Positions 16,682 to 62,185 of a DNA stretch of 64,000 bases are shown piece by piece (position 1 is the first letter of the stretch; each line of letters starts with the position of its first letter). The stretch comes from a virus (Duplodnaviria > Heunggongvirae > Uroviricota > Caudoviricetes), in the IMG/VR virus record IMGVR_UViG_3300031993_000014, positions 114,987 to 178,986 of that record; one strand, written 5' to 3'. The notes under the pieces were generated by a model, which saw only the letters and a program-made list of their open reading frames with translations, had not been told where the DNA came from and did no database searches. The position numbers and the translations under genes are program-made.

Positions 16682-16720
16682 AAAAAATTCAGTATACTTG
16701 CGTATACTGAATTTAATTTT
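16682..16720. terminator. bidirectional terminator, cUUGCg tetraloop
   Basis: aattcagtatac-ttgc-gtatactgaatt is a perfect 12-bp stem at 16686-16713. A6 upstream and T-rich downstream. Lies between convergent genes. Confidence 0.8.
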
Positions 16721-30165: not shown

Positions 30166-31332
30166 TAGTCTGTCAACATCGATGTTACGGACGTGGTCAA
30201 TAGCGTCCAATATCACATCGGTCAATGAGATATTGCAGAACCAGTCTACCTTTTCGATATACATGTCGTCCCTAGCTTCAGGCTCAAGGATTCTACGGAT
30301 ACTGTCGGGAAGTCTTCTAATAAGGAACCCGAGTACAGCTTTAGCATTATCCGTGAACTTGCAATCTTCAAAGACTAACGGGCCAAGATCGTATGAAACG
30401 ATTTGGTCGTATGCACAATCGAAATTGGTAACATAAGGTTTAAAGTTCGTGTAGAAGGTCTCGGATTTCCCATCCTTGACTTTCTCACGTATTTCCTTCA
30501 TGCGTTCGAGAGGCGTAGGGTCAAGCTTGTCACCGCCTTCTGCGTTTTCTCTCAGGTAGCTGAGGATCTCAATCATACCGTCAAGAGTCATCAGAGAGAC
30601 ATAATAAGGCTTTTCCATTATCTCGCGATTGGTAAGACTGATGGCAAGAGTTATGCCACTGGTGTTATTATCCAGAGAGATAGTAGTGCCACGCTCAGGA
30701 TTCTTCTTAGCCATACGGTCTGCATAAGCTTGCGCCACCTTGTAATCGGAGAATCTCAGAATGTCAGACAGGCATCCATTGATGTCCATTTCATCGGCTG
30801 TTTCAACACCGTTTCTTAGCATGATGTTAAGCAGCTTGGTAGTCATGGTGCAATCCGGATCATCCTTGAGATTGAACATCTCCGGGTTTTCTTTAGCCAT
30901 CCGCTGTATGCGTTCAACACCCTTAGAATTCCAGTATGTGATCTGCCCAAGAGTAGCCATCATTCTGGCAAAGCCATCAGTCTCGTTCTTAACCATGAAG
31001 CAGATTGCGGAATCGATGTATGCTGTAAGAACGAGGGCTTTTCCTGTTAGTGTCTGGCTTATTTCCATCTTTCGCTTTGCAAATACGTTGAGAGTTCTTA
31101 CAATACTCTCTGACATGTTTCTTGCGTTTATAACCCAGACATCGTCGTATGCCTTGTATGTCGTTCTCGTCGATACAACGATGGCGGCATTCAGCATAGC
31201 TTCAAAATTCTTTTCAGTTTCTTCTTTGGTATCGGAAGAGATAGCCTTGATCATGTTCTCATTGAACGAGGTCATGGCTACCGCTACCGAGAGTCTTCCT
31301 GATGTAGTATTAGGCAGACTGTCTATTTTCAC
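30160..31332 (-). CDS. hypothetical protein, 390 aa
   Basis: ORF translationally coupled with the rusA-like gene upstream. Confidence 0.65.
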   Translation of the reverse strand: MKIDSLPNTTSGRLSVAVAMTSFNENMIKAISSDTKEETEKNFEAMLNAAIVVSTRTTYKAYDDVWVINARNMSESIVRTLNVFAKRKMEISQTLTGKALVLTAYIDSAICFMVKNETDGFARMMATLGQITYWNSKGVERIQRMAKENPEMFNLKDDPDCTMTTKLLNIMLRNGVETADEMDINGCLSDILRFSDYKVAQAYADRMAKKNPERGTTISLDNNTSGITLAISLTNREIMEKPYYVSLMTLDGMIEILSYLRENAEGGDKLDPTPLERMKEIREKVKDGKSETFYTNFKPYVTNFDCAYDQIVSYDLGPLVFEDCKFTDNAKAVLGFLIRRLPDSIRRILEPEARDDMYIEKVDWFCNISLTDVILDAIDHVRNIDVDRLK

Positions 31333-31859
31333 TTTTTCGGCTCCCTGAATTTGATATGGAATAATACCCTAGGAGTAGCAGAGTAATACTTATCGCAACC
31401 TTCGTTTACAACAAGCTTATCATCATCCCAGAGTACGTTGTTAGCCGCATCCATGAACAACTTTGCGTAGTTATCCACGTCCGGCTTCGTAAGCGGACGG
31501 AGTAATCCTTCTTCATACAAAGGCATCTCGTAATCCTTAACGGTCTTAGGAGCTTTCTTGTATGAATCCATCTTGAAATAGATGGCTGTATCGCGAATCA
31601 TGGAGACCCCAGCATCTTTCATCGCATCCAGAATGTAATCCCTAAAGATCTTCTTGGTAGAAGTATTGGGGTCATACATGGACAGGAACTTACCGTTCTT
31701 ATCCATTCTGGCACGTTCGCGTTGCCAAGCCTTCGGTTCTCCCATAATCTCTATCGTGATTTCCTTCCACTGGAAGTCATTGATGAGATGGATGCGGAGT
31801 TCCTTAGTCTTCTGAGCTATCTTCTCTTCTTTAGTAAGGGTGCTAGCCATAATTTCCTC
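31329..31859 (-). CDS. rusA: RusA-family Holliday junction resolvase
   Basis: ...GEPKAWQRERARMDKNGKF... and KPDVDNYAKLFMDAANNVLWDDDKLVV match RusA motifs. Start moved to the ATG with AAGAGGAAA RBS (MASTLTKEE...). Confidence 0.75.
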   Translation of the reverse strand, partial: EEIMASTLTKEEKIAQKTKELRIHLINDFQWKEITIEIMGEPKAWQRERARMDKNGKFLSMYDPNTSTKKIFRDYILDAMKDAGVSMIRDTAIYFKMDSYKKAPKTVKDYEMPLYEEGLLRPLTKPDVDNYAKLFMDAANNVLWDDDKLVVNEGCDKYYSATPRVLFHIKFREPKK

Positions 31860-32093
31860 TTTGTTAGATTGTGAATTATAATCTATAAAAAGTTCATTTG
31901 ATACATGAATTATTCGTCCTTGATATAATATGGCGTCCAAATTTGCACTGAAATTATAGTCTTTTCCGGAGGCCCATCTAACTATACATTGAAAATGTCT
32001 AGGATCCTAGTACAGTAGACATTTCTCTTGGAGCTAGGATAACATTAAGTCCTGGTTCCGTTTTCTCACAATCAAAAATAAAAGGATACAATT

Positions 32094-33986
32094 ATGTCCG
32101 TTTCTTACATGCAACCTTCTCAGAAGATGGCTGCTTGCAATGACTCGTTCACCTCCACTCTTCGCGAAGTGGCTGAAGAATTCAGCGCAAGCAATGTTAA
32201 CATCTTCAACGCCGATGACTTCAAAGACGTCTTGGGCGATGATGGCCTCTTTGGTCGTTATTCTGAAATGCTCGCTGCTGGCCTTGATGAAGCCGAAGCA
32301 GAACAGTTCAAGACTATTGCACAGTCTTCTCGTATTGAAGCTCTCGAAGCTGCCTCCCTTGGTACAGTTGCTCCGATGTCCTTCCTCCAGACCCCGATGC
32401 TCCGTAAGTCTTGGGCTCGTACGGCTATGAACAAGGCTATCCCGACGGAAGCTGTTGAAAAGCCGAAGTTCACCATTAACTACCTCCATCCGTGGCTCAA
32501 GGATCTTCAGGGCAACAAGCACTATGTGCCGGAAAACCTCATGGACATCGATACCGCTGTCTCTAAGGTTCGCCTTGCTGAAGATGTGAAGTTCTATTTC
32601 GGCGCAGGTAACTGCTTCTCCATGAATCTCCTCACTGGTCTTGATGTTGACGAATTCGGCAACGACATTGCTAATTCTAAGAACTACAAGACTCCGACTG
32701 GCGGTACTGCGGATTCTACTCCGAAGTATGATGCAGCTATCGGCATGGTCAACCATGAAAATGACGAAGTTGACGTGAACGTTTCTGTCATTACGGCTGG
32801 CTTCGATTCTTCGAAATATGTTGCCAATGCTGGTGTTCTCGTTAACGGTGTTTCGAGAAAGCTCTTGGCTCCGGCTTCCGGAACAGTCGCTCTTACTCTT
32901 AACGGCACCGCTCTCACCGATGCTGATCTCGTCAAGAACTGCAAGATCGAATGCGGCACCCGTCGTGGTGGCATCAAGGGTGTTGTGACCCTCGACGTTG
33001 AAGTTGATGCAGCTTGCATTGATTCTGGTGCAACTGGTACCGTCATCGTGACGCTCGTTGACGCTATCTACGGTGACGTTGATGTGAAGACTGGTCGTCT
33101 CACTCTCATGCAGCAGCATGGCAACCTCAAGTTTGTCATGATCAAGGCATTCGTGTCCTCTGTCATGAACAACAGCACTCTTCAGGTTGGCTTCGATATC
33201 CGCGACAAGGAAATCCACATCGGTACTGGTGAACACCTTGAAGCTCCGGTTCCGAACGAATACATCACGGACTTGCTCCGTATGTTTACGCTCAACGGTG
33301 TTTCCAAGCTCGTGGAAATCCTCTCCAGCTTCCTCGCTCAGAAGATGGACTTGGATGGCGTTAACTTCATGGATGAAGTTATTGATGACGCTATCGAACA
33401 GGCTCCGAATGGCGACTTCGTTCGTGCATTCTCTGCAAAGCCGGTGGGTAACTACCAGCTGAACCCGGCAGAATGGCCCAAGATGCTTACCAAGGTGCTC
33501 GACCACCTCTCCATGAGCATCATCAACATGTACCATTACGAACAGGGTTACTTCGTTGCGGCTTGCAACCCGCTCGATGCAGCTCTCATTCCGGACATCA
33601 ACTGGGTGTTCCACGGTAATGGTCAGTCCGAATATGCTGGCGTGAATGCTAACATTGCCTTCGGTCAGTATCAGGGTATCAACTCTTGGAAGGTTGTCTC
33701 CTCTCCGAACATCCCGCAGGGCGCTATCCGCGTTCTCTTCATCCCGACTGTTCAGGATCAGATGACTTACAAGCTCTATACCTACAGCTTCATGCTCGAA
33801 CAGGCTGGCTCTGGCTACAACAGCCCGAAGAACACTTACGTTCCGACCATCCTCACCTCTCGTCGTTACGCCTATGTTGACGTGATGCCGGGCGCAGGTC
33901 GTGTGACGATCACGAACAACAGTGCAAACTTCTACAGTTTTGCAGGCGTGTCGCCTTATTTGCCGACTGAAACGTTCATCCACTAA
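32094..33986 (+). CDS. abundant virion structural protein, candidate major capsid protein, 630 aa
   Basis: Strongly optimised codon usage (ggt/ggc/cgt/ctc/ttc/aac). Lone plus-strand gene among minus-strand genes. Followed by a perfect UUCG terminator. The 649-aa minus-strand ORF over the same region is judged antisense. No HK97 motif can be verified by eye. Confidence 0.8.
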   Translation: MSVSYMQPSQKMAACNDSFTSTLREVAEEFSASNVNIFNADDFKDVLGDDGLFGRYSEMLAAGLDEAEAEQFKTIAQSSRIEALEAASLGTVAPMSFLQTPMLRKSWARTAMNKAIPTEAVEKPKFTINYLHPWLKDLQGNKHYVPENLMDIDTAVSKVRLAEDVKFYFGAGNCFSMNLLTGLDVDEFGNDIANSKNYKTPTGGTADSTPKYDAAIGMVNHENDEVDVNVSVITAGFDSSKYVANAGVLVNGVSRKLLAPASGTVALTLNGTALTDADLVKNCKIECGTRRGGIKGVVTLDVEVDAACIDSGATGTVIVTLVDAIYGDVDVKTGRLTLMQQHGNLKFVMIKAFVSSVMNNSTLQVGFDIRDKEIHIGTGEHLEAPVPNEYITDLLRMFTLNGVSKLVEILSSFLAQKMDLDGVNFMDEVIDDAIEQAPNGDFVRAFSAKPVGNYQLNPAEWPKMLTKVLDHLSMSIINMYHYEQGYFVAACNPLDAALIPDINWVFHGNGQSEYAGVNANIAFGQYQGINSWKVVSSPNIPQGAIRVLFIPTVQDQMTYKLYTYSFMLEQAGSGYNSPKNTYVPTILTSRRYAYVDVMPGAGRVTITNNSANFYSFAGVSPYLPTETFIH

Positions 33987-35419: not shown

Positions 35420-35477
35420 TTTTATCTCCTGTTTAATTATGGCACTTTTTAATATACCATCGGATCACAGAAATTTA

Positions 35478-35516
35478 CAAAAAAGAAAGGGCATCTTGCG
35501 ATACCCATTCTTTTGA
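35478..35516. terminator. cUUGCg hairpin terminator between paralogs
   Basis: gggcatc-ttgc-gataccc (one G-U or mismatch) with T-rich tracts on both strands. Confidence 0.55.
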
Positions 35517-35527
35517 ACATATCTAGA

Positions 35528-35998
35528 TTAGCAAGCGAAGATGAGCTTTCCAATTCGCAATTGCGCTTCATCTGCGGTTAGTATTTCATACTCTCTGCCA
35601 TTGCAAGAGCATAAAGCCTTTACAAGCTTTTCAATACTGTCAATCTCTTTGGCTTCTTTATCTGTCAAGAAAAGACAAACAGTGTTTATTTCAACCTTAT
35701 GAATTGGTTGATTTGTCTGTCTTTCAACAAACGTTCTGCAAAGTGTTATCTTGACATAAGAAGTATCTTTGCATAAAAATGGATATGCCGCGAGTTCTCC
35801 TTCCGTTGGTTTAGAGACATTTTGCAGTATACTGCTAGATAGAGACATCGCCACTGCCCATCTGTAGTTGCGTATACCGTCATGTTCCTCATTCTCGGCG
35901 AAGAGCGCAAGACCAGTGCCACGTTTATTAATGAATTCGCGGATAAGGTCTGCTAGTTTAGACACAGTTTCACTTGCTGTTTTCTTGTTCATTGTCAT
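35528..35998 (-). CDS. hypothetical protein, paralog of 34970..35419
   Basis: See the paralog entry at 34970..35419. Confidence 0.65.
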   Translation of the reverse strand: MTMNKKTASETVSKLADLIREFINKRGTGLALFAENEEHDGIRNYRWAVAMSLSSSILQNVSKPTEGELAAYPFLCKDTSYVKITLCRTFVERQTNQPIHKVEINTVCLFLTDKEAKEIDSIEKLVKALCSCNGREYEILTADEAQLRIGKLIFAC

Positions 35999-36050
35999 TT
36001 TTCTCCTTTAAAAAGAGAGTATGCTTTCGCATACCCTCCTATGAAATAGG

Positions 36051-36578
36051 CTAGAGAACGACACATTCACTAACATTGGTGACATGGCGTTTCCTGCCGT
36101 TGGGTAGATGACAGTATCCGCTAACGTGATACTGGTCATCGATTTTACCCACAAATTTATAACCGTCTTTCTCGGCTACATATTCATCGCATCCCTTCTG
36201 AAAGAAGAAATTTTCTCTACAGCCATAATCAGCCGTGGAGATTAATTCAATCAGATTATCTGCCGAGAAGCTGTTCTCACGAATTTTTGCAAACCCGTAA
36301 GTTAATTCTACCTTCCCGTTAGATAGGACTTCAACCTTGTCTACATGACGGCATACAATACCGTCATAAGACTTGGTCTTTCGCATCGGTACGCCATTGA
36401 TGCGAATATTGAGGGTCTTATATACCACGCCCTCTTCCTGACGACAGCTCATGCTATCAGCGGTAATATTGGGTACCACCTCCAAGACTTCATGATCGCA
36501 GGATCTAAAGTCGTAGCATCCTTCTCCTGCCTGAAGTAATGCCGCCATAGCGAGAATGAATAAAAGAATTTTCTTCAT
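36051..36578 (-). CDS. secreted Cys-containing protein with N-terminal signal peptide
   Basis: MKKILLFILAMAALLQAGEG signal peptide, then a mature protein with six or more Cys. Confidence 0.65.
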   Translation of the reverse strand: MKKILLFILAMAALLQAGEGCYDFRSCDHEVLEVVPNITADSMSCRQEEGVVYKTLNIRINGVPMRKTKSYDGIVCRHVDKVEVLSNGKVELTYGFAKIRENSFSADNLIELISTADYGCRENFFFQKGCDEYVAEKDGYKFVGKIDDQYHVSGYCHLPNGRKRHVTNVSECVVL

Positions 36579-36758
36579 CCTGTTGTTTTTGATGCTAGTA
36601 ACGGAATTGTCACTAGGATGTGTCTCCTAATTATCACACCATCGTTTAATATAATGTTAGACCCATTCTAAAATACGCTGCAATTTTTTTCTGTAAGTTT
36701 AAATAAAATAAAAAAAAAATAAAATATAAAAACTAAGCCTTAACTATAGGAGAATCAA

Positions 36759-37073
36759 ATGTTACTAGAACTCAAAGCATCCCAAGCCAGACTAATCTCA
36801 GATACCAGCTTCTACAGATATGGAAAGACTCCGCATAGAGCTACTGTTCTTACAATGGCTATCGCTTTCATTAGCGCAAAGATTTTCGAGCATGCTTCTA
36901 AGAAAGAGAAAGTATACTCTATTGAGCTGCCTAGGCTTTACATCTTAGAAGAAAATCTCGAAAAGGAAGAACGTGAAGAAATGGTAAAAGAGCTTAAAGC
37001 ATACTTTACAACCCTCGGTTACATGGTTACCGAAGATACAAATGGTTTTACATATTTCCACTGGGAATTGTAG
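36759..37073 (+). CDS. hypothetical protein, 104 aa
   Basis: RBS TAGGAG. Preceded by an extremely A-rich tract at 36690-36740. Confidence 0.55.
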   Translation: MLLELKASQARLISDTSFYRYGKTPHRATVLTMAIAFISAKIFEHASKKEKVYSIELPRLYILEENLEKEEREEMVKELKAYFTTLGYMVTEDTNGFTYFHWEL

Positions 37074-37124
37074 GATCATAGAAAAATATAAGAGGAGCGA
37101 CTGTGTGTCGCTCTTCTTTTTTTT

Positions 37125-37550
37125 TTATTCTGCAATGAGATCGTGGTCTGTGTTCTCCGATAGAACATTGGGCAGATCTCTCGTAACTTTGTACAAGAAG
37201 TTGAATCTCTTGCTGTACTCGAACAAGTCATCATCCGATGGGATATCATCCGGATTATCCCCACGGTCTTTTAATCTTGCTTTGCTCTTAGGCGTAGTAC
37301 AAAAGAGAATCACAAACATCGTATCACTAGCAGCTTTTACCTTTTCTCTGAACGCTTCGGCAAATGCCTGAAGCCTGTCAGGATTGTTAGCATCTTCTAA
37401 CGAGATATAATTTTCGTCACTTACCTGGTCTGTGTACAATCCTTCGTCAATGATCGTACAATCAGGAAACATTTTCTTTAACATTTCAGCTCGGAAGGTC
37501 TTTCCAGTACCGGGAATACCGTCCAACTCTATCTTCTTAATTTGTTCCAT
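37125..37550 (-). CDS. P-loop nucleoside/nucleotide kinase-like protein
   Basis: Walker A GIPGTGKT near the N-terminus. 141 aa, typical of dNMP or nucleoside kinases. Confidence 0.65.
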   Translation of the reverse strand: MEQIKKIELDGIPGTGKTFRAEMLKKMFPDCTIIDEGLYTDQVSDENYISLEDANNPDRLQAFAEAFREKVKAASDTMFVILFCTTPKSKARLKDRGDNPDDIPSDDDLFEYSKRFNFLYKVTRDLPNVLSENTDHDLIAE

Positions 37551-37637
37551 GTGTCTCCTTGGATAGAAGCTTATCTTAATATATGACTGTATATTAATCT
37601 ATGCTTTAACCATAAATTTTTAAATCAAGGAGGTTTA

Positions 37638-38252
37638 ATGGCTGAAGAAAAAGTAGAAATCACTCTAGACAACATTGACAAAATCGTTGATGACCGTATT
37701 AACGAATGCTATGCAAAAGCTGAAGCTGGATCAGCCTTTGTTGCCAAACAGAGAGAAGAAATAGCAAAACGTTCTTTTGCAGTGGAGATCCCGAAGGAAG
37801 AACCCAAAGAAGAACCTAAGCCCAAACCGAAGGTTGTAGAACAGCCGAAGGTGGTTAATAGACGCAGCTATGAAGAGATATTTAAGAAGATCGCTACTAG
37901 CTTTGGCTTTAAAGTCCGTAAAGAAGAAGACGGCTTAGTCTCTGCTTACGACGATACATTCTACTTTATAGCAGGCGATGGTTCTAAACGAAAGCTTGAA
38001 CGAATTGCCGCACAACTTGGACATAACGGTCTAACCACTTGCTGTACCAGATTCGTCTCCGATCCAGAAGGTAAGATGATTATAGACAGATGTCCGAGAC
38101 CAGTCGGCAATACATTGTTCGATCTTGACAAAGAGGAAGAAGCCTTAAAGGAAACTTTCGCAAAGCTCACTCTATCTCGTAAGAACGCTCTCTTAGGGTT
38201 TAAAGCTCCTAGAGAACGGAGTTCGCATGGTAGAATGGGCTGGTCTGGCTAA
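37638..38252 (+). CDS. hypothetical protein, 204 aa
   Basis: RBS AAGGAGG. Lys/Glu-rich middle region. Confidence 0.6.
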   Translation: MAEEKVEITLDNIDKIVDDRINECYAKAEAGSAFVAKQREEIAKRSFAVEIPKEEPKEEPKPKPKVVEQPKVVNRRSYEEIFKKIATSFGFKVRKEEDGLVSAYDDTFYFIAGDGSKRKLERIAAQLGHNGLTTCCTRFVSDPEGKMIIDRCPRPVGNTLFDLDKEEEALKETFAKLTLSRKNALLGFKAPRERSSHGRMGWSG

Positions 38253-38346
38253 TAACTTTATGGAATGATATTATTCTATGAATCCGGGGATAGTGTCATT
38301 CTTTTAACCACAAACGGATTCAACAATCACAACAAAAGGAAACCTA

Positions 38347-40077
38347 ATGGAACTTACTCCAATGCTTATTGTAGGACTGGCAGTTGCTGCGCTCGTCTTG
38401 CTTCTTTTAATTATCTTCCTGGCTGGATATGTTAAGGCTCCGCCTAACACGGCTTTTGTCATCTCTGGTATCCGCAAGGAACCGCGATTCCTCGTTGGTC
38501 GTGCTGGCTTGTGCATCCCGTTCCTTGAACAGAAAAACTCTCTTACTTTGTCTGTTGTTACGATCGACGTTAATACAACGGAAGCTATTCCCACAGCCGA
38601 CTGTATTAAGGTTCAGGTTGACGCTAATGTGAACGTCCAAGTTGACACAGAAGAAGATGTTGAAGAAGACAAACGCAAGGGATACATGAAACTTGCTGCT
38701 AAGAACTTCCTAGATCTTAGTAACGATGACATTATCAAGATCGTTCAACCTGTCCTCGAAGGTAACATCCGCGAAATTGTTGGTAAGATGAAGCTTAAGG
38801 ATATGATTGGAGATCGCCAACAGTTCGCTAAGCTCGTATCCGACAATGTTGCTCCAGATCTTCATAACATGGGTCTGAAGCTCGTATCTTTCAATGTTCA
38901 GAATTTCCGCGACGACGTGAAGGGAAACGGTACAAGTATCATTGATGATCTCGGTGCTGATAATACTGAAGCTATCCGTAAGACTGCTCAGATTGCACGC
39001 GCAAATGCTACTCGCGATATCGCTATTGCAAAAGCTGCTGCAACGAATGAAGCCAACGAAGCTGAAGTTAAAGCAAATACCATTATCGCCGAACGCAACA
39101 ACGCTCTCGAAATCAAGCAATCTGACCTTAAGAAAGCTGCTGATACCCAGAAGGCAGTTGCTGCTAAAGCATACGAAATCGAAATTGCCAAACAGCAGAA
39201 GACGATTAACATTATCAACGCTGAAGCAGAAACTGCAAAGCAGGAAAAACTCATCGACGTCCGTAAGAAAGAAGTAGATGTTACGGAACAGGAACTCGAA
39301 GCTAAGGTTACGAAACCTGCCGATGCAGCTAAGAAGGCCAATATCATCAAGGCTGAAGGTATTGCACAGGCTCGGATCATCGAAGCCGAAGCCAATAAGA
39401 AGACTGCAACTATCAACGCCGAAGCTGACTTGATTGCTAAACAGAAATATGCCGATGCCGAAAAGTACAAGGCTGAAACCGCTGCTGCTGCTGAACTTAC
39501 ACAGAAGCAGAAGACCGCAGATGCTGAACGCTATAACAAGGAACAAGAAGCAGAAGCTCTTAAGGCTACTGCTGCTGCCGAACTTGTCAAACAACAGAAG
39601 GAATCTGAAGCTAAACAATACGATCAGACTTGCCAAGCCGAAGGTATCAAAGCTCTTGCAGCTGCTAATTTGGAATCTGCCCAAGCTGAAGCTAAGGGTA
39701 TCGAAGCCAAGGGTACGGCTGAAGGTGCTGCTATTGCTGCTAAGGGTCTTGCAGAAGCAGAAGCCAAGGACAAGTTGGCAGATGCCCTCAAGAAATATGG
39801 CGAGGCAGCATTGCAAGATATGAACCTTGCAGCTGTCAAGGAACTCATTCACGTATTGCCGGATATCGCTGGCAATGTAGCAAAGCCGCTCGCTGGCGTG
39901 AAGGAAATGAAGCTCTACGGCGAGGGCAACATTTCTCAGATGACTGGCGATATCACGAAGTCTATGATGAAAGTCATCGACGGTGTTCAGGACGCAACTG
40001 GTCTCAATGTAGGAAACTTCCTCAACAGCTTCCTCGGAGCCAAGGCTGCCCAGATCACTGCCGATAAGAAAGAATAA
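38347..40077 (+). CDS. flotillin/SPFH (band-7) family membrane protein
   Basis: N-terminal TM helix LIVGLAVAALVLLLLIIFLAGYV, SPFH core (NTAFVISGIRKEPRFLVGRAGLCIPFLE...), then a ~300-aa Ala/Glu/Lys-repeat coiled-coil flotillin tail. The 459-aa minus-strand ORF over the same region is judged antisense. Confidence 0.85.
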   Translation: MELTPMLIVGLAVAALVLLLLIIFLAGYVKAPPNTAFVISGIRKEPRFLVGRAGLCIPFLEQKNSLTLSVVTIDVNTTEAIPTADCIKVQVDANVNVQVDTEEDVEEDKRKGYMKLAAKNFLDLSNDDIIKIVQPVLEGNIREIVGKMKLKDMIGDRQQFAKLVSDNVAPDLHNMGLKLVSFNVQNFRDDVKGNGTSIIDDLGADNTEAIRKTAQIARANATRDIAIAKAAATNEANEAEVKANTIIAERNNALEIKQSDLKKAADTQKAVAAKAYEIEIAKQQKTINIINAEAETAKQEKLIDVRKKEVDVTEQELEAKVTKPADAAKKANIIKAEGIAQARIIEAEANKKTATINAEADLIAKQKYADAEKYKAETAAAAELTQKQKTADAERYNKEQEAEALKATAAAELVKQQKESEAKQYDQTCQAEGIKALAAANLESAQAEAKGIEAKGTAEGAAIAAKGLAEAEAKDKLADALKKYGEAALQDMNLAAVKELIHVLPDIAGNVAKPLAGVKEMKLYGEGNISQMTGDITKSMMKVIDGVQDATGLNVGNFLNSFLGAKAAQITADKKE

Positions 40078-40170
40078 TTCATTCACCACCTAAACATCAA
40101 GTGTCAGAGCAATCTGGCACTTTCTTTTTTGTATATTAAAGAAGGCCATCTTTAACAATAGGAGACAACA

Positions 40171-40653
40171 ATGGCTAAGAAATACGAAGACTTTACGTAT
40201 ACTAATAAGCAAGAAGCTGTCAGAAGGGAAATTGAGAAGTGCGACTCAAAGTCCACCGGGTTGCAGGTTATTAAAGTATCCGAATCTAGCAAGGAAGTCA
40301 AGAAGCTCCTCGACGAATACACGTGTGAACTCGCCAAGACCGAAGCATGGAAGGAAGTTACAGATAGCTACCAGTATAAGCGTGCTGTAGAAACAAGCTT
40401 CCGTTGCATCCGTAGCAAGATTAGCATGGATCCGCTGAAGACATCCGAAGAATATATGGTATGGAACTTCTTGTACAGGTACGCAATGGTTGTCCGCGAC
40501 AGACTGTACAATATGAAGCTCCTGTGTCCTGAACTCGTAATCACACAGCTTGACAAGATTGGCGGTGGTTTCTATGATCCGGATATCCGTACGCTCACCA
40601 GTATTATCAATGAAACTGATCGCGAAAGAAGATCGATGGAAAGCTATGTCTGA
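40171..40653 (+). CDS. hypothetical protein, 160 aa
   Basis: RBS AGGAG before the ATG. Confidence 0.6.
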   Translation: MAKKYEDFTYTNKQEAVRREIEKCDSKSTGLQVIKVSESSKEVKKLLDEYTCELAKTEAWKEVTDSYQYKRAVETSFRCIRSKISMDPLKTSEEYMVWNFLYRYAMVVRDRLYNMKLLCPELVITQLDKIGGGFYDPDIRTLTSIINETDRERRSMESYV

Positions 40654-41158
40654 CGAAATTAATAGACCTCCTTTTACACAACACCCGCTTCATGGCTTCA
40701 TCATGGGTCTTGAACAGAGACGCTGTTATGATGCTAAGGAAGTGGACGACTACATTACAAAACTCCAAGATACAATTGCTGGACAGAAGACCGTTCATGA
40801 TTGTTATCGTATGACGATGGATATGGCGATGACAAACTATCTTTTCCAGATTGACAAGCAAAGACAGGCTCTCTTCAGGAAGAGATTAGAAGCGGCAGAA
40901 TGGCAAGTGAGATACTGGTCTCTATTGTCTACTAAAGAGACGGATATCTATTACGATGTGAGAAACCGTAGAGTTTCAACTTCACGGAATAAACTCAGGC
41001 CAAGTGCATGGGTTCATATCTGGCTTACGGTAAAACATAAGCTCGAAGCCTATATAGAAACATTCAATGCTCCGATAGAACTACGGCTGAATAAGATTAT
41101 TTCGCCGGAAATGTTTAAGACTCTTTGGAAGCTTAGGGAACAATGTTTGAAAGGTTAA
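40647..41158 (+). CDS. hypothetical protein, ~170 aa
   Basis: ATGTCTGA overlap with the previous stop (MSDEINRPP...). The track start at 40550 is rejected. Confidence 0.55.
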
Positions 41159-41349
41159 GACAGCTTTTTACTAAGAAGAATTCTCCATGCCGTCATAAGT
41201 GGGTTGCCTGTCATGATCCGTACAAACCAGAGCTAGGTATACATTACCGATGTTCTAAATGCGGCGAAAGACGGGAATCCATGTTTGAAGGACAGGAGAA
41301 TGGAAGCTTTTACTCATTAGATCATTACATGATTCACAGAGGAAGATAA
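41143..41349 (+). CDS. small Cys/His zinc-ribbon-like protein, 68 aa
   Basis: CRHKW...CHD...CSKCG pattern. Confidence 0.5.
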   Translation: MFERLRQLFTKKNSPCRHKWVACHDPYKPELGIHYRCSKCGERRESMFEGQENGSFYSLDHYMIHRGR

Positions 41350-41351
41350 CT

Positions 41352-41921
41352 ATGGGGCTATTCTCTTTTATATTCGGTAAACCAAAGACTAAAGAAGAAC
41401 CAAAGAAAACAGCCTTTGAGCCAAGAGTAAAGACCGACTACTTTACCACAAGGACTGTTAGAGCAGATTGCCAGAACTGTTGTCATAGACGTTCCGTTAC
41501 TGGAAGCTTCTTCGAGTGCGATAAGGGATTCCCTGAAGAATGTCTTGCACCCGAGCCTAAGAGCCCAAGGTCATGCCGAGAGATTGGAAGGGTTACGACA
41601 ACCCTTACCTTTGACGAGCGTAACTTTGATGAGGAAATCACTATCCCGTGCCTCTTAGCTTGTAGACTCGAAGAAGAATTGAAGCCGTATGAATGGTGTC
41701 AACATATTAAAGAAGACATTGACGTCATACTTTATGATAGAGAAGTCATCTTTAAGGTGATGATTTATTTGGCTTCGGAAACAGTTTATGACGGCGGTGA
41801 TTACGGTATATTCATGGCTGATGTTGCAGAGAAGATAAAGAGAGACAAAGATCTCATGCGATACATCGGCAAGAAGTACGGTACAGCTAAAAAACCATTT
41901 TACCTTGAAGAAGAGGAGTAA
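41352..41921 (+). CDS. hypothetical Cys-rich protein, 189 aa
   Basis: RBS GAGGAAG. Contains CQNCCH...C...C. Confidence 0.6.
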   Translation: MGLFSFIFGKPKTKEEPKKTAFEPRVKTDYFTTRTVRADCQNCCHRRSVTGSFFECDKGFPEECLAPEPKSPRSCREIGRVTTTLTFDERNFDEEITIPCLLACRLEEELKPYEWCQHIKEDIDVILYDREVIFKVMIYLASETVYDGGDYGIFMADVAEKIKRDKDLMRYIGKKYGTAKKPFYLEEEE

Positions 41922-41924
41922 ATC

Positions 41925-42500
41925 ATGGCAGAAGAACTTGACATGGAAGAAGTTCTTACAGTAGAACGTCTTTCAAGATTCATTGATATGAAAGGCTTAT
42001 CAGAGGAGTGCAACGAATTCTGCATTAATCTGTATAAGAAAGACTTGAAGAAAGCCGCTGCCGTTCCAGTGGGTGACAGATTCTTCGCTTGGGAAGGATG
42101 CTACTCTAAGAGAGCATATGAACTCGCAGGAGAAGACTTCGACCGTGGCGGTGACTTTGGCTACATTTGTGCTAATCAAGAATTCTTCCCGTTTGGGTTT
42201 ATCGACCCGAGTTCCAAGGATACTAAGCCCGAGGAACTTGAAGGCGAATTCATGACTATCGACGATATGACTAAGATCAATCCGGCTATTACCGTTGATT
42301 CTGTCTTCGAACAGTATAGAGCAATTCGCGATGGAGAATATACTCCCGGTGATGGGAGATATAACTTCAGCGATTTTGGATTCTCCGAAAGGGATGAGCC
42401 TACTGATGACCAGATGAAGGCATGGCTTGCTCAGCTTAAGTTCGAGAAGCTTACGGATGAAAGAATCCTGAAACTTGGCCCAGAAGACTTCTTTGGTTAG
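41925..42500 (+). CDS. hypothetical protein, 191 aa
   Basis: RBS GAGGAG. Confidence 0.6.
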   Translation: MAEELDMEEVLTVERLSRFIDMKGLSEECNEFCINLYKKDLKKAAAVPVGDRFFAWEGCYSKRAYELAGEDFDRGGDFGYICANQEFFPFGFIDPSSKDTKPEELEGEFMTIDDMTKINPAITVDSVFEQYRAIRDGEYTPGDGRYNFSDFGFSERDEPTDDQMKAWLAQLKFEKLTDERILKLGPEDFFG

Positions 42501-42507
42501 GTTGCTC

Positions 42508-42858
42508 ATGAATCTAATTATCAGCGTAAGTGCTGCTAATGTCTTCGGTTTGGTTACGGAGATCATGCAGAAGATATCGCATGACCATATGATCAATCTC
42601 AAGTACTTTTCTAACAAGCCAAATCCGAACGGAGGTTATATTCTCGAATTCGAGGATATCGACCGTGGAGAAGGCCCTGTCACTGTAGAGTACTCTAATG
42701 TAGAAGACTTTGCTCGGAACTTTGCCGAAGCGTATAATGACATGACGAAATACTCTGATGGTTTTGAGCTTGTAACAGAAGTAATAGGACTGTTGGCTAC
42801 AACAGTAAAAGAAGCGGAAAAGAGCGAGGTTACTCATGGAGATAAGAATAAAGCTTAA
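42508..42858 (+). CDS. hypothetical protein; start uncertain
   Basis: Internal ATG chosen to avoid overlap with the previous gene. Confidence 0.45.
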   Translation: MNLIISVSAANVFGLVTEIMQKISHDHMINLKYFSNKPNPNGGYILEFEDIDRGEGPVTVEYSNVEDFARNFAEAYNDMTKYSDGFELVTEVIGLLATTVKEAEKSEVTHGDKNKA

Positions 42859-43177
42859 CCTTGATAGTCTTCAGGATCTCGTTAATGAAGCCTTAAAAAT
42901 CATGGCTGGTTATGGGCGTATCAGCGGTTTTTCAAATATAAGGAACGATGATGGTCATTATACCGCGAGACTATTATCTCCTTATGGCCCTGCCGATACT
43001 ATTTGCTATAGCAATATCTTTGAATTCATCGATGGATGCAATTTTAATGGGCTCGGGATGGACGCCAAGGATGCTGTTGTAAGAGCCATTTTAGAACATG
43101 CTCACAGAGACGATATTCTAGATGAAGAAGATGCCTTCTATAAAGGCGCAAAAATAGAAAAGACTTTGTGTCTCTAA
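42836..43177 (+). CDS. hypothetical protein, 113 aa
   Basis: RBS GAGGT. Confidence 0.55.
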   Translation: MEIRIKLNLDSLQDLVNEALKIMAGYGRISGFSNIRNDDGHYTARLLSPYGPADTICYSNIFEFIDGCNFNGLGMDAKDAVVRAILEHAHRDDILDEEDAFYKGAKIEKTLCL

Positions 43178-43278
43178 GTAATAATGGTATCTGAAAGGAT
43201 ACCATTTCTTTTTTTGCGAATTTTGTATGACGAATTGTATATTAAAGTATGTTCATATTAACCATAAGGAGGTACAAA

Positions 43279-47502: not shown

Positions 47503-48270
47503 TCAACCAGAGAAGGCAGGAAGATATGCCGGAATATTAAGCATCTTGCGCTTGTATTCCATACGCTTCATGCGATCTGCCAGAGCAGTACGAACACCTT
47601 CGGACAATTCGTTAATGCCACCACGGATGAACGTATCAATCTGTTTGTAGGTGAACCCCATTTTCTCTTCATCAGACTGGCCAGTCAAGCCATCAGACGG
47701 AGTCTTGAGAACAAGGTCTTCAGGCAACCCAAGAGCGATACCGAGTTCACGGACTTCGGTCTTGGTCAAATTAGCCATCGGAGCGATGCTTCCCATGTCA
47801 GCCCACATGGTGAAATATCCTATCATGAGCTCAGAGAGATTTGCAGTACAGATGATCAGAGAATCGCCAATAGTCTGTGCGATAGCAGTTTCAACAGCCG
47901 TTCTTACATGCGGAGTGATATTGGTATTAGCTTGGACGCTGAGATCTTGCTTAGCCGGAAGAGCAAGCCTTACAGTCGCCTTAGCCGCAAGCACAGCCAT
48001 AGCAAGGTTAGCTTCGATAGTGTTGACAACGCCAGCAGCCTTGGCAGCACGCTTTGCGTCATCGAGGTCAACTTGAACACCGTTAGGCATGAAGATACCG
48101 TAAACATGTTCCGGGCCGACAGCCAAGGTAGCAACCTTAGCAAGAACGGTGGAGTCGGCACCGCCACTGATACCGAGAACGAGGTTCTTCATTCCGGCAT
48201 CTGCAACGACCTGTGCCGTCCAGTCTACGATTTCTTTTTTGACGATGTTAATGTCGTGAATCTTTTTCAT
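47503..48270 (-). CDS. nadE: NH3-dependent NAD+ synthetase
   Basis: PP-loop LGISGGADSTV. 255 aa, the short ammonia-dependent form. TGQSDEEKMGFTY motif. Confidence 0.85.
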   Translation of the reverse strand: MKKIHDINIVKKEIVDWTAQVVADAGMKNLVLGISGGADSTVLAKVATLAVGPEHVYGIFMPNGVQVDLDDAKRAAKAAGVVNTIEANLAMAVLAAKATVRLALPAKQDLSVQANTNITPHVRTAVETAIAQTIGDSLIICTANLSELMIGYFTMWADMGSIAPMANLTKTEVRELGIALGLPEDLVLKTPSDGLTGQSDEEKMGFTYKQIDTFIRGGINELSEGVRTALADRMKRMEYKRKMLNIPAYLPAFSG

Positions 48271-48286
48271 TTTTGTATACCTTTGG

Positions 48287-48856
48287 TTATTCGATCACTT
48301 CAATTTGTTGTGCACGGGCAACAGCCTTAGCTGCTTCATGACCCGGTTGTTCACCATGTTCGTTAGGTAATCCTGCCGAGCAGGTGCTGTCCCAAATGAT
48401 TCGCTTGTCTGGGAACATAGCTCTGAGGATAATAAGGTTGGCAATAACACAGATTTCAGAAACGAACCCGATGACGGTAATAGTTTCCGCTTGCTCAAGA
48501 ACTCTACGCATTTCTGGGAGATAGTTTTGGTCATCTTTTTCAAGTCCCCAATTAAGGCAGCCGAAAGTGTGCTTTTCTACAATCTGAATGAGCTTCGGCT
48601 TTGCAGCTCTATAGATGCTCGGTTCGATTTCGTAGCCCTGATCCTTAGCATAGACATCACAATGTTCCGGGATATGCTGGCCTTCGAGCGAGAACTTGTA
48701 GTAACGACCATCGTGCAAGTCTTCGGTCAGGATGACAGGCCCCTGATGGTTTTCGATTTTCTTAACGGCCTTTTCCAATACCGCTTGTGCCAACGGATTA
48801 GCGAGTCTTCCGTTGATGAAGTCTTTGTCAAAGTCAATACCAATAAGTGTATTCAT
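48287..48856 (-). CDS. pncA: nicotinamidase (isochorismatase-fold cysteine hydrolase)
   Basis: MNTLIGIDFDKDF (catalytic Asp), ...VIGFVSEICVIANLI (catalytic Cys). Start moved to the ATG at 48856 with AGGT RBS. Confidence 0.75.
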   Translation of the reverse strand: MNTLIGIDFDKDFINGRLANPLAQAVLEKAVKKIENHQGPVILTEDLHDGRYYKFSLEGQHIPEHCDVYAKDQGYEIEPSIYRAAKPKLIQIVEKHTFGCLNWGLEKDDQNYLPEMRRVLEQAETITVIGFVSEICVIANLIILRAMFPDKRIIWDSTCSAGLPNEHGEQPGHEAAKAVARAQQIEVIE

Positions 48857-48863
48857 TGTATAC

Positions 48864-50162
48864 CTACTTCTTGTGGGGGTTGAGATCAGATTTGATGAAA
48901 TCATCAATAATCTTTGTATGGTGGAAAGCGAGGACTGGCAGATCGTAGATGGGGAACCATCTAGCTTCAGCCGCATCATCGCCAGCTGTAATCATATCTT
49001 CTTCGTCAGGATCAATCTTTACAAAGAAGGCAGTATCGACAATCCGCATACGAGGATCGAACTTGCAGCTGTATGTCTTGATCTGATGGAAGTTGTTAGA
49101 GCAGAAATGCAATCCAACTTCTTCAGAGAATTCTCTAGCTGCGGTAGATTCAAGGCTTGGATCGTTTTCGACATCAAAGAATCCACCCGGAAGAGCCCAG
49201 TAGTCTTTATAAGGGTAATCCTTACGGCGGACAAGGAGGACTTCTTCGGACTGGTTCACAGCCACGATGTCAACAGTCGCAGAAGGCTCGCCATATGCCT
49301 TCATGATAGAATCTTTGAGCATAGCCATACCAGCCGTAGCAAAGACAGCTGAGCCAGTCTGTTCATTGGCAGGTTCATTGACCTTTATACAATTATCCTT
49401 GTATAAAGCCAGTGCTTGATTACCAGCATCGTTGTAGATTTCGTCAAAGTGTTCGCGGATATACTTGACAGTATTCTTCTTATACTTTTCAAGGAAGATT
49501 TCTTCGCCTCGTCTGTATTCCTGAAGACGGTGCTGATGATACAGAGATCTGGAAAGAATGTAGTTAGCTGCTGCATCAGGCAATCCGAGTGCCTTGAACT
49601 TCTCCGGATGATTTTCAAGGATGAATGGATGCAGTTCAAGCAATTCACGGATTTTAGTAGAGGAAACCTTCTTTGTAAGCAGGGAGTCGTCACCGAGCTC
49701 AAGCCTGATAAACGGCTTGGATTGCGGAACTTTCTTCCAGAGTGCTTCAAGAGTATCGTATTTTCTAAATCCACGTTCTGCTACGATAAAGTTAGCGTAG
49801 TGCATGAGAGCATTGCTGTTACGCCATTTTCCATTGGCGATGTTCATTGCCTGATCCATCCCGACAACGATATAAGCATCTTCGATGTTGAGCTTAAGCG
49901 TTTCCGTAATATAGTCATACATACGGGCATCTTGTTCCGCAATTCTGAAGGACTTATGAAGCGGAGCAAAAGCTCTTCTTACCATTTCCATGCGGTCTTC
50001 GTAAGAGGAATTATATACCTTTTCGTCATTGCAGGAAATGAGAACGATGGCTTCAAAGCCATCAGTAAAGTTCTTGAAGGCATAGTCCAATGCTTTTTCA
50101 AATACGGCTCTGTGACCGATAGTGACAGGGTCAAATGCCCCGCCATAGATCAATGTCCTCAT
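48864..50162 (-). CDS. bifunctional NMN/NaMN adenylyltransferase with C-terminal Nudix hydrolase (NadM/NatV-like)
   Basis: IYGGAFDPVTIGHRAV is the (H/T)xGH motif. KVSSTKIRELL is the ISSTxIR motif. Nudix box GGFFDVE...AAREFSEEVGL. Start ATG overlaps the pncB stop (TAATG). Confidence 0.85.
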   Translation of the reverse strand: MRTLIYGGAFDPVTIGHRAVFEKALDYAFKNFTDGFEAIVLISCNDEKVYNSSYEDRMEMVRRAFAPLHKSFRIAEQDARMYDYITETLKLNIEDAYIVVGMDQAMNIANGKWRNSNALMHYANFIVAERGFRKYDTLEALWKKVPQSKPFIRLELGDDSLLTKKVSSTKIRELLELHPFILENHPEKFKALGLPDAAANYILSRSLYHQHRLQEYRRGEEIFLEKYKKNTVKYIREHFDEIYNDAGNQALALYKDNCIKVNEPANEQTGSAVFATAGMAMLKDSIMKAYGEPSATVDIVAVNQSEEVLLVRRKDYPYKDYWALPGGFFDVENDPSLESTAAREFSEEVGLHFCSNNFHQIKTYSCKFDPRMRIVDTAFFVKIDPDEEDMITAGDDAAEARWFPIYDLPVLAFHHTKIIDDFIKSDLNPHKK

Positions 50163-51442
50163 TAATAAGCCCTCCACAAGCGTTGCGAGTTATGTTTCTC
50201 AATGATAGTCTTAACGAATTCCGTGATTGCTTCCGGATTATCCTTAAGATAAGCAAGCTCGCTCAGAGGCTGATAGTTAAAGTCATTCTTGACTCTGATG
50301 ATCTGTTCTTCGTCGTCATGGTTGCACTTGCCAGCAACATCGCTCAGCTTGATAGCCGAGATACCGTTACCGCTATAGAGCTTCATGACCATATTGAGAG
50401 GATCACCACCAACGGTATTGGTGAGGAATGTGCCTTGTCCGATGGCAACATTGATAACATGAGCAAACATCTTAACGAGCATTACCACATCATCATCCTT
50501 CAAACTGTCGCTAAAGCAAGCGGTCTTAGTAAGAGGATTGATCTTGAGCTGCTTGTAGAATTCGATAAGGATCTGGCACCAGAGTACTGGATCGCCACTG
50601 TCATGGCGAACACCGTCGGCGAGCTTGGCATAGAGCAAGTCGAAGTCTTCGAGGAAGGCCTTGAAACCATAGGTGTCGCTGAGGAAGATACCGAGATTGC
50701 CACGATATTCACGAAGCCATGCATCGAAGGTTGCACGCTGCGATTCCGAGAGACGGAACTTAGAAATCGTCTGGAGAAGCATGAACATCTGATGGGCCAT
50801 TGTACCCATGTCCTTCACGCCGTTGATCATTGCCATATAGACATTACTTGTACCAACGAAAGCCTTGCAGTTTTCGATAAGGTACTTGACAACGAACATC
50901 TGCCAATCAAAGCTTGCACGGCGACGAGTACCGAAGTCGCTGAGAGTAAACTTGTAGCCCTCGTCGTAGATCTTGTTATACTTGTCTACGGCTTCCTTCA
51001 AACGCTTCTTGCCGAATTCATAATCGGTAGGCTGGTCAATCATCCACAGTTCCTGAATGATCTCAAGGACGTAGATTTCAAACCAATGGTCACGTTCTTC
51101 AAGACCATTAGTCCATACTCCAAGGACATCACCATCACGGGCGACATGGATGTCTTCACGAGGGAGACGGAAGTCACGGAGCCAACGAATGTAGTCTTCG
51201 CTGTACCAATTGTGACTTGCGATAAAGGAGAGTTCATCTTCTCCGTGCTTAAGTTCACAGAGATGATTGAGCTGATACTCAAGTTCATCTTTCAGGTAAG
51301 CAGTCTTCTTACCTTGCGAACGGATTGTCAACTTCCACTGCGAACGTTCGTTCGGGAACTGGTGATGAAGTACCTGACCCATCGAATACTTGTAAGCATC
51401 CGTGTCGGTAAGGTGATTGACGATGCACTTATAGTGACCCAT
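50162..51442 (-). CDS. pncB: nicotinate phosphoribosyltransferase
   Basis: Blocks align to E. coli PncB: HLTDTDAYKYSM (LLDTDAYKLHM), LSDFGTRRRAS (MDFGTRRRFS), AFVGTSN, GVRHDSGDP, KLSDVAGK. Confidence 0.85.
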   Translation of the reverse strand: MGHYKCIVNHLTDTDAYKYSMGQVLHHQFPNERSQWKLTIRSQGKKTAYLKDELEYQLNHLCELKHGEDELSFIASHNWYSEDYIRWLRDFRLPREDIHVARDGDVLGVWTNGLEERDHWFEIYVLEIIQELWMIDQPTDYEFGKKRLKEAVDKYNKIYDEGYKFTLSDFGTRRRASFDWQMFVVKYLIENCKAFVGTSNVYMAMINGVKDMGTMAHQMFMLLQTISKFRLSESQRATFDAWLREYRGNLGIFLSDTYGFKAFLEDFDLLYAKLADGVRHDSGDPVLWCQILIEFYKQLKINPLTKTACFSDSLKDDDVVMLVKMFAHVINVAIGQGTFLTNTVGGDPLNMVMKLYSGNGISAIKLSDVAGKCNHDDEEQIIRVKNDFNYQPLSELAYLKDNPEAITEFVKTIIEKHNSQRLWRAY

Positions 51443-53777: not shown

Positions 53778-53794
53778 TAAACCTCCCTGTTAGT

Positions 53795-61633: not shown

Positions 61634-61707
61634 ACATTTCTCCTTGTATACTCTTTATTATATACTATGAAAAAATAAAGCTCATGGACGAATCCATGAG
61701 CAATTCT

Positions 61708-62136: not shown

Positions 62137-62185
62137 TTTTCTCCTTTTTATTTTTTATTTTTAATAATACTTCAGAAAAAAGTCG

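Follow-up and report, generated by a model that had tools for sequence, protein, structure and literature searches.

Bacterial flotillins scaffold membrane protein complexes, and the family is known for building cage-like membrane scaffolds; what such a protein would do for a virus is the question raised by a gene in IMG/VR virus record IMGVR_UViG_3300031993_000014. We analyzed a stretch of 64,000 nt of this record (positions 114,987 to 178,986; hereafter, the window, to whose numbering coordinates refer unless a locus handle is given), for which a preliminary description, made from the sequence alone, had proposed a phage-encoded flotillin at 38347-40077 on the plus strand. The gene proved to be a complete and functional flotillin gene of a jumbo phage, with a promoter-like element on its 5' side, a conserved terminator-like hairpin on its 3' side, and strong purifying selection acting upon it. 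The full explanation that we favor, in which the protein is a flotillin, forms a cage and serves the host membrane during infection, stands in our judgment at about even chances.

The open reading frame (ORF) lies exactly where it was first placed and encodes 576 amino acids (aa); it begins with ATG, with an AAGGA ribosome-binding site 7 nt 5' of the start. Its product is confirmed as a genuine flotillin-family SPFH protein of a phage, whose parts, all given here in plus-strand coordinates, are the membrane anchor, SPFH domain, long parallel coiled coil and Flot C-terminal domain. The anchor is an N-terminal hydrophobic helix (residues 5-27; 38359-38427) of either transmembrane or re-entrant hairpin topology, in keeping with the transmembrane helix first proposed: Kyte-Doolittle values within residues 1-34 reach 3.38 in 19-residue windows, the AlphaFold2 model has a helix at residues 5-27, and the hydrophobic N-terminus is present in 15 of 15 aligned homologs. 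The SPFH/Band-7 domain (residues 28-220; 38428-39006) is defined by a Pfam Band_7 (PF01145) match to residues 31-220 (E=8.8e-18, 65.4 bits versus a cut-off of 23.6) and by an alpha/beta domain at residues 28-189 of the model, where the predicted local distance difference test (pLDDT) score is about 80-90. Because Band_7 covers residues 31-220, the SPFH core claimed earlier is indeed found within the N-terminal 200 aa. The coiled-coil region (38938-39882), delineated by the model and by composition, comprises helices 198-318 and 324-512, between which a break at 319-323 is conserved. These two helices provide a helical stretch of about 310 residues, followed by C-terminal helices, and residues 221-445 contain 25% Ala, 14% Lys and 13% Glu, as expected from the tail of ~300 Ala/Glu/Lys-rich residues described at the outset. 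The Flot C-terminal oligomerization domain (residues 446-527; 39682-39927) is matched by Pfam PF15975 (E=6e-7, 30.0 bits versus a cut-off of 27), so that both profiles suggested for checking the assignment score above their cut-offs. An antisense ORF of 459 aa (38710-40089) was considered and set aside as most likely a shadow of the biased composition; the codon model favors the plus strand.

Comparison with known families supports a flotillin rather than another type of SPFH protein. The best matches among PDB sequences are human flotillin-1 and flotillin-2 (E~1e-35), aligned in two collinear stretches that cover the SPFH domain, the N-terminal half of the coiled coil and the C-terminus, the last of these being collinear with residues 306-418 of human flotillin-1. 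The AlphaFold2 monomer model (built from a 15-sequence alignment; mean pLDDT 67.7) retrieved the flotillin cages 9bq2 and 9l3g as top Foldseek matches (E 1e-19 to 1e-17), followed at lower ranks by HflK/C, prohibitin, stomatin, QmcA, erlin and vault. The only real match in NCBIfam is the FloT model NF058507 (residues 10-402); with 215.6 bits versus an equivalog cut-off of 700 bits, the protein belongs to the flotillins without being an ortholog of FloT. No PHROG family was found for it, and PADLOC gave no defense-system match. The human flotillin-1/2 cage (9bq2, 9l3g) is the best solved relative by both sequence and fold, and shares with the phage protein the order of SPFH domain, coiled coils CC1 and CC2, and C-terminal domain; the Ala/Glu-rich wall helices described for the human cage match those of the phage protein (PMC11260169). 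The two differ in the anchor, which is a hydrophobic helix in the phage protein and lipidation in the human one, and in the length of the helical region, about 310 residues versus the 186-residue wall of the human cage. The human cage is a hetero-44-mer, whereas the phage protein presumably forms a homo-oligomer since there is only one gene.

Bacterial flotillins of the FloT/YuaG type, together with their relatives in Firmicutes, Fibrobacter and Treponema, have the same architecture as the phage protein from end to end, with 90 invariant columns, 39-43% identity and QKxAEAxxY units in common. The phage protein is distinguished from them by a coiled coil longer by ~50 residues, an acidic insert in the SPFH domain, membership in a phage-only clade, and the lack of a detectable NfeD/YuaF partner. 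The additional coiled-coil residues, which are missing from most cellular homologs, align as inserts at residues 340-361, 369-379 and 402-418; they lie in an expanded hendecad-repeat segment (residues 340-418; 39364-39600, plus strand) built from QKxAEAxxY-type units, as seen in alignments and by motif search. The SPFH domain contains a window-specific acidic insert at residues 105-112, and a further small insert occupies residues 191-195. Copies of QKxAEAxxY/F, which were picked up by a motif regular expression and not by BLAST self-comparison, are spaced 11, 22 or 29 residues apart and number one to five among homologs; because the copy number of this unit varies, the coiled coil changes in length by steps of roughly 11 residues. 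The wall of the solved flotillin cage is formed by parallel helices arranged as a right-handed barrel, and the size of the complex was proposed to be set by their length (PMC11260169). With wall helices ~50 residues longer than those of its cellular relatives, the phage cage would be expected to be taller or larger than theirs. Such natural length variants, in 11-residue steps, could be used to probe how helix length sets cage size.

Phage hallmark genes occur on both sides of the flotillin gene, which agrees with its being described as phage-encoded. The window encodes a virion structural protein (2893-5970), a tail sheath of 1390 aa (6820-10992, minus strand), the large terminase (13900-15888), a baseplate wedge protein (16719-19514), a DNA polymerase (22073-23683) and the major head protein (32094-33986; PHROG 20655, PDB 7x30). 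Just 16 Pfam families were recognized among 99 ORFs of the window, none of them a cellular housekeeping family, and no tRNAs were found there. The terminase is 40-42% identical to those of Bacillus phages BpSp, Goe21, AR9 and PBS1, and 35% identical to those of Staphylococcus S6-type phages. A contig of 242,489 bp carries proteins 100% identical to two proteins of the window, a PspA-like protein and a nicotinate phosphoribosyltransferase (NAPRTase), relatives of which also sit on contigs of 243 and 260 kb. The flotillin is carried by a tailed phage of jumbo size, with at least 242 kb of DNA, which has two marks of the AR9/PBS1 (phiKZ-related) type, a genome of >200 kb and a related large terminase. 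Two multisubunit RNA polymerases and uracil-containing DNA are further marks of this type; no RNA polymerase subunits were recognized among the scanned ORFs of the window, and megablast of 30-50 kb of it against deposited phages gave no match at the DNA level. A highly expressed 630-aa gene was considered as a phage-nucleus shell protein and rejected, as it is the major head protein.

A protein database yielded 3,750 relatives of the flotillin, the closest having identities of 94%, 62%, 55% and 53%, with a group at ~47% coming next; all close relatives examined are found in phage-type contexts. They include four loci syntenic with the window (referred to as L001, L007, L008 and L169), a T4-like contig of 132 kb on which T4 portal, neck and RegA genes occur, and further contigs of 366-424 kb. 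Across 185,579 reference species, cellular flotillins reach at most about 43% identity, and the best matches come from Acetatifactor and other Lachnospiraceae, Fibrobacter, Treponema and Ruminococcus. The preliminary description regarded a flotillin as unusual cargo for a phage. This is true of deposited phages, of which only 8 of 50,697 records match (tblastn, E<=1e-3), among them Vibrio phage KIT04; it is less true given that the KIT04 protein is already annotated as a flotillin, that SPFH proteins of jumbo phages are known, and that 206 stretches in IMG/VR encode flotillin relatives, many of them on contigs of 100-424 kb. These 206 were retrieved by an alignment-based scan, a scan with a single flotillin sequence having returned no matches. 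More than 20 IMG/VR contigs of about 154-166 kb share one flotillin neighborhood, and viral and cellular flotillin neighborhoods have almost no gene families in common. Some flotillin-bearing IMG/VR contigs may be bacterial, one of them (L053) being the same 185,517-bp contig as that of an Acetatifactor metagenome-assembled genome (MAG).

In a bootstrapped neighbor-joining tree of 63 sequences and 478 columns, which is distance-based, the window flotillin falls into a phage-only clade with a bootstrap of 100. A larger clade, also with a bootstrap of 100, contains Fibrobacter flotillins as its only cellular members, which is the sole hint about the host. Elsewhere in the tree viral flotillins pair with those of Romboutsia (bootstrap 100), Agathobacter (100), Lachnospiraceae (97) and Erysipelotrichales (76). 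Because these viral-cellular pairings are several and separate, the simplest reading of the tree is that large phages captured flotillins repeatedly and independently, with long retention in the lineage of the window phage. The cultured phage KIT04 (T5-like, Demerecviridae, 114.9 kb, proteobacterial host) represents one more acquisition: its KIT04_048 (473 aa, annotated as a flotillin family protein) is homologous to flotillins over its full length (E 5e-24 to human flotillin-1) and adjoins small unknown genes near an RNA ligase, and it was acquired separately since it is only 26% identical to the window protein over residues 24-361 and belongs to an unrelated phage family with a proteobacterial host. 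RaK2-like and Erwinia jumbo phages encode SPFH proteins whose function is stated to be unknown (PMC7760394, PMC6034870); these are known as members of the SPFH superfamily and from proteomes of virions, with no flotillin coiled coil or Flot domain reported, and are too divergent to match the window flotillin by tblastn at E<=1e-3.

The flotillin gene is under strong purifying selection. Compared with the L169 ortholog (94% protein and 88% nucleotide identity), the ratio of nonsynonymous to synonymous substitution rates (dN/dS) is 0.079 overall, with regional values of 0.089 for the anchor and SPFH domain, 0.069 for the coiled coil (221-445) and 0.035 for the C-terminal region (446-576). Directly upstream lies a conserved 204-aa gene (37638-38252, plus strand) with no recognized domain or transmembrane segment and no Pfam, PHROG or PADLOC match. 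Its homologs, at 25-28% identity, are located immediately upstream of flotillin in L001 and L007, and also upstream of it in L008 and L169, with another gene inserted between the two in L169. Across the syntenic loci the flotillins have kept about 53-63% identity versus the 25-28% of this neighbor; the low dN/dS and the preservation of flotillin while the adjacent gene drifted together argue that the gene is functional. Codon usage was evaluated by an index similar to the codon adaptation index (CAI), referenced to four structural genes, by which 74 window genes were ranked. With a value of 0.679 the flotillin gene ranks 10 of 74, in the top 14% of window genes; Glu is encoded by GAA in 96% of cases, and GCT and GGT are dominant. 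The codon optimization attributed to it in the preliminary description thus stands for gaa, gct and ggt, and fails for aag, as AAG (70%) is used no more than in ordinary genes.

A promoter-like or 5'-leader element, ATATTATTCTATG ... TTTTAACCACAAA, precedes the flotillin gene at 38268-38314 (plus strand) and is kept in L169 despite the different gene upstream there. A search for ATATTAWTCTATG with one mismatch allowed gave 4 matches versus 0.25 expected. Exactly two copies of ATATTA[AT]TCTATG occur in the window, 5' of the 204-aa gene (37591) and of flotillin (38268), and each is followed by TTTAACCA[TC]AAA. The element upstream of the 204-aa gene (37588-37616, plus strand), TGTATATTAA / ATATTAATCTATG + CTTTAACCATAAA, is identical in L169, and TGTATATTAA has three exact copies in the window (37588, 40130, 43236), all on the plus strand just 5' of genes. 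This element resembles, and no more than resembles, the core of the early promoters of phage AR9, which are used by its virion RNA polymerase and have the consensus AAATATATATTAT-(6N)-G (PMC5312081). The AR9 late-promoter motif, AACA-N6-TA/G, was not evident by eye upstream of flotillin. Because the ATATTA[AT]TCTATG element is common to flotillin and its upstream neighbor, we infer that flotillin is served by a promoter of its own, which shares its class with that of the 204-aa gene and may be an early one. The shorter pattern (G)TATATTA(A/T) recurs intergenically in the correct orientation at 35449-43245 and also at 11123, 43919 and 51801, often paired on both strands between divergent genes, as at 37583 (minus) and 37590 (plus); the same pattern, with its likeness to the AR9 early core, is seen in L001, L007, L008 and L169.

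On its 3' side, 22 nt past the stop codon, flotillin is followed by a GC-rich hairpin with an AGCAAT loop and a T-run, resembling an intrinsic terminator (40099-40132, plus strand). Hairpins occupy the same position after flotillin in four related loci (L001 11696-11719, L008 7893-7916, L007 6973-6992, L169 11753-11776; 40099-40122 in the window), their AGCAAT hexaloop being invariant, with both position and covarying stems preserved in L169, L001 and L008; the compensatory stem differences are GTGTCAG/CTGGCAC, GCGGTAG/CTACCGC and GGGGGTGAG/CTCACCCC. Only two hairpins with an AGCAAT loop and a stem of >=6 bp exist in the window (shuffle mean 0.12), one directly after the flotillin stop codon and the other directly after the stop codon of the PspA-like gene (62784-62817, minus strand); the latter is identical in locus L172 and has an AGCGAT loop in locus L173. 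Other terminator-like hairpins of the window are of the tetraloop type or have other loops. In 1.97 Mb of retrieved loci, strong AGCAAT hairpins were found only in relatives of the window phage, almost always directly after flotillin, and their stems differ. The AGCAAT-loop hairpin may be a lineage-specific RNA element.

The preliminary description also connected flotillin with a PspA-like gene. This gene (62835-63479, minus strand; 214 aa) is probably a divergent member of the PspA/Vipp1 family and thus of the ESCRT-III superfamily. Pfam PspA_IM30 (PF04012) matches residues 16-204 collinearly, nearly full length (E=1.3e-6), at 28.6 bits, under the gathering score of 33.9; phmmer against PspA/Vipp1 proteins of PDB gave E values of 0.1-0.9. 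In the AlphaFold2 model (pLDDT 75.7), helices 2-78, 83-147, 157-187 and 203-212 form a long hairpin and two shorter helices, and the nine best Foldseek matches are all Vipp1/PspA structures over the full length (E 2e-3 to 1e-2; template modeling score 0.45-0.56). The assignment is graded as probable because these Foldseek scores are modest. The CAI-like value of the gene is 0.753, which places it fourth of the 74 ranked genes. Predicted small membrane proteins, also mentioned in the preliminary description, do exist in the window. One of them is an 87-aa protein encoded directly downstream of the PspA-like gene, past its hairpin (62506-62769, minus strand), with hydrophobic residues 1-35 and no family match; it is a possible partner of the PspA-like protein at the membrane. 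A 165-aa gene without a family match (63484-63981, minus strand) lies 4 nt upstream of the PspA-like gene.

In addition to the hairpin, the PspA-like gene shares with flotillin and the 204-aa gene a leader motif of the TTTAACCA type, YTTAACCA, which has 7 matches in the window versus 1.7 expected, 5 of them just upstream of gene starts. The shared hairpin and leader motif hint at co-regulation of flotillin and the PspA-like gene. There is cellular precedent for such a pairing, as an SPFH protein of B. subtilis recruits PspA to the membrane (PMC8581546), and PspA is linked in cellular genomes with proteins of the same flotillin architecture (PMC11237479). The cellular PspA and SPFH modules (pspA-ydjGHI of B. 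subtilis; CesT/Tir-PspA-flotillin-YqiJ/YuaF operons) differ from the arrangement in the window in that they are single operons, and no YqiJ/YuaF, AAA+ or CesT protein was detected here, where the PspA-like protein itself falls under the Pfam cut-off.

The role that we consider most plausible, although we would put it somewhat below an even chance, is that flotillin keeps the host membrane intact, energized and organized through a long infection cycle, probably together with the PspA-like protein. Under this proposal, flotillin would be made in many copies during infection and would insert on the cytoplasmic side of the host inner membrane. There it would self-assemble like the SPFH proteins of solved structure, giving a closed multimeric cage around a fenced-off patch of membrane, and the cage and the PspA-like membrane-repair protein would jointly stabilize the host membrane. 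Defense against host suicide systems that damage membranes, the use suggested in the preliminary description, would then be one special case of this membrane role. Tad2-like, Gad2, NAD-salvage and LemA genes found near flotillins in some lineages provide anecdotal hints in this direction.

Several observations weigh against this role or against its individual components. The monomer model is of low confidence past residue 480. The hairpin and leader motif that connect flotillin with the PspA-like gene were noticed post hoc, and a distance of 23 kb separates the two genes. A search of the 8-10 kb flanks around other phage flotillins gave no PspA-type genes; this is a weak test, as its probes were the PspA-like protein of the window and an E. 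coli PspA sequence, the latter of which misses even the window's own protein. The NfeD family has no match among the 99 window ORFs at E<=1e-3, nor is it among the best 25 of 64 neighbor families at viral flotillin loci. In a neighbor census, phage flotillins were accompanied by heterogeneous auxiliary genes with no constant partner. Finally, the cellular relatives of the NAPRTase, at ~40% identity, belong to assorted Proteobacteria and give no host signal.

A bolder version of the membrane role appears improbable to us. It would have large gut and rumen phages carry a two-part membrane-remodeling kit, in which an extended-wall flotillin cage and an ESCRT-III-like PspA protein, co-regulated via shared RNA elements and acquired in repeated, independent events, build or shield a membrane patch or compartment. 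If true, this kit would represent an unrecognized class of phage counter-defense or host takeover, directed for example against pore-forming abortive-infection effectors; alternatively, the membrane patch would host phage replication or assembly. Flotillins and SPFH cages are among the least understood membrane organizers, and how phages handle host membrane integrity is a growing question since many defense systems kill by membrane damage. A phage flotillin offers a testable entry to the question of whether SPFH cages shield membranes from pore-forming effectors or holins.

Among the other possible functions, the scheduling of lysis survives best, although we consider it unlikely. Here the cage would enclose holins or other membrane proteins of phage or host, as HflK/C does with FtsH, and thereby delay or time the permeabilization of the membrane. 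SPFH cages do enclose client membrane proteins, HflK/C-FtsH and QmcA-YbbJ structures are among the Foldseek matches, and a gene of the Amidase_2 family, which is also represented among neighbor families, lies about 6 kb downstream of flotillin in L008. However, no holin, endolysin or spanin family was recognized in the window, lysis genes are not consistently linked to flotillin across lineages, and the promoter-like motif resembles the early rather than the late class.

An early-type promoter motif would suit superinfection exclusion or control of DNA entry, with inner-membrane cages that block or organize injection sites. The same idea was put forward, as a guess, for an SPFH lipoprotein of phage GIB1 whose function is unknown (PMC13239085), and SPFH proteins of Erwinia jumbo phages were detected in virions by mass spectrometry (PMC7760394, PMC6034870). 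The window protein, in contrast, has the architecture of a cytoplasm-facing flotillin and no lipoprotein signal, and nothing in the window bears on exclusion; we assign this function a low probability. Equally low in our estimate is the probability that the protein redirects host physiology by regulating a host membrane protease or complex, as a scaffold, similar to HflK/C or FloT, that serves FtsH, secretion or cell-wall machinery: the HflK/C-FtsH structures among the fold matches are in line with it, but no FtsH-related or client gene is linked to flotillin, and the closest family is flotillin and not HflK/C.

The two remaining explanations deny the gene a phage role and are disfavored by the data. 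That flotillin is a recently captured passenger from a host is very improbable; many IMG/VR flotillins do cluster with those of likely host lineages, but the window gene has a low dN/dS in every region, belongs to the phage-only clade (bootstrap 100) with <=43% identity to the flotillins of the 185,579 reference species, and shows conserved, phage-like synteny, terminator and codon usage. That it is a bacterial gene, on a bacterial contig or in host DNA beside a prophage, is scarcely credible despite the occurrence of some flotillin contigs in bacterial MAGs (L053 in Acetatifactor), given the capsid gene (32-34 kb) on one side of it and other phage-type genes on the other, the sheath, terminase and baseplate genes upstream, the 16 Pfam families in 99 ORFs without housekeeping functions or tRNAs, and neighborhoods unlike cellular ones.

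SPFH proteins in jumbo phages and the annotated KIT04 flotillin were already known; newly described are a phage-only clade, flotillin capture on several occasions, an expansion by hendecads, the lack of a detected NfeD, and the RNA elements shared with the PspA-like gene. A large review comparing jumbo phages is silent on SPFH, flotillin and PspA. Full-text literature searches of incomplete coverage turned up no study of the function or evolution of phage flotillins, which is an absence of evidence and no more.

The census of flotillin neighbors covered 148 families, mainly ribonucleotide reductase, RNA ligase, ThyX, PhoH and homing endonucleases. We considered the neighborhood as an anti-defense island and rejected this as a general description, since Tad2, Gad2 and NAD-salvage genes occur in some lineages only and ordinary auxiliary genes dominate. 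Tad2-like genes (Pfam E about 1e-19 to 1e-23), Tad2 being a Thoeris anti-defense protein, lie directly upstream of flotillin on viral contigs of 223-252 kb (L009 6633-7196, L083 7289-7597, L079 and L086), and Gad2 (anti-Gabija) is located about 3-4 kb from flotillin in L007 and L008. In viral contigs of 348-411 kb (L074, L075, L025, L055, L058 and L080), flotillin is preceded by a LemA-family gene (E=8.8e-28; L074 6661-7218) and by a gene for a 246-aa protein that is hydrophobic at both ends (L075 7218-7958), which together make up a distinct three-gene membrane module. The T4-like 132-kb contig (L003) has an IS605-type TnpB/Cas12f-like gene directly upstream of flotillin (8464-9726) and also encodes a Cpn60/GroEL-like chaperonin. 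Just downstream of flotillin in L030-L050 (e.g. L031 9455-10189) is a 244-aa gene whose product has an N-terminal transmembrane segment and a long coiled coil; judged by eye to be PspA-like in ~24 viral contigs of 154-166 kb, it was dropped for lack of Pfam or BLASTP support.

The nicotinamide adenine dinucleotide (NAD)-salvage cluster of the window (47503-51442, minus strand) consists of NAD synthase (47503-48270), a fusion of a nicotinamide/nicotinic acid mononucleotide (NMN/NaMN) adenylyltransferase with NUDIX (48864-50177), and the NAPRTase (50162-51442). L001 has the same genes plus isochorismatase-like and radical-SAM proteins, and in IMG/VR phages of ~160 kb NAMPT and NadE are encoded right beside flotillin. 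The cluster may serve to counter NAD-depleting defense systems.

Further features of the window concern its structural and small genes. The tail sheath (6820-10992, minus strand) is unusually long; sheath profiles match it only in a central stretch and over the C-terminal ~280 residues, and the remaining bulk of its 1390 aa consists of insertions with no profile match. HNH_3, AP2, RusA, STIV_B116-like and Phage_base_V domains were each recognized in one ORF in a pooled scan, RusA probably at 31329-31940 as judged by synteny with L001 and L169. Two adjacent pairs of paralogs have no assigned function, 27700-28413/28422-29189 (32% identity) and 34970-35419/35528-35998 (54%). An unbroken array of ~30 tightly packed or overlapping small genes of about 100-165 aa, with no Pfam or PHROG match, extends over 51951-62545 (minus strand); detectable paralogy within it is limited to three adjacent pairs (54180/54592, 54962/55332 and 55723/56099), and L172 and L173 have this array after their PspA-like gene too.

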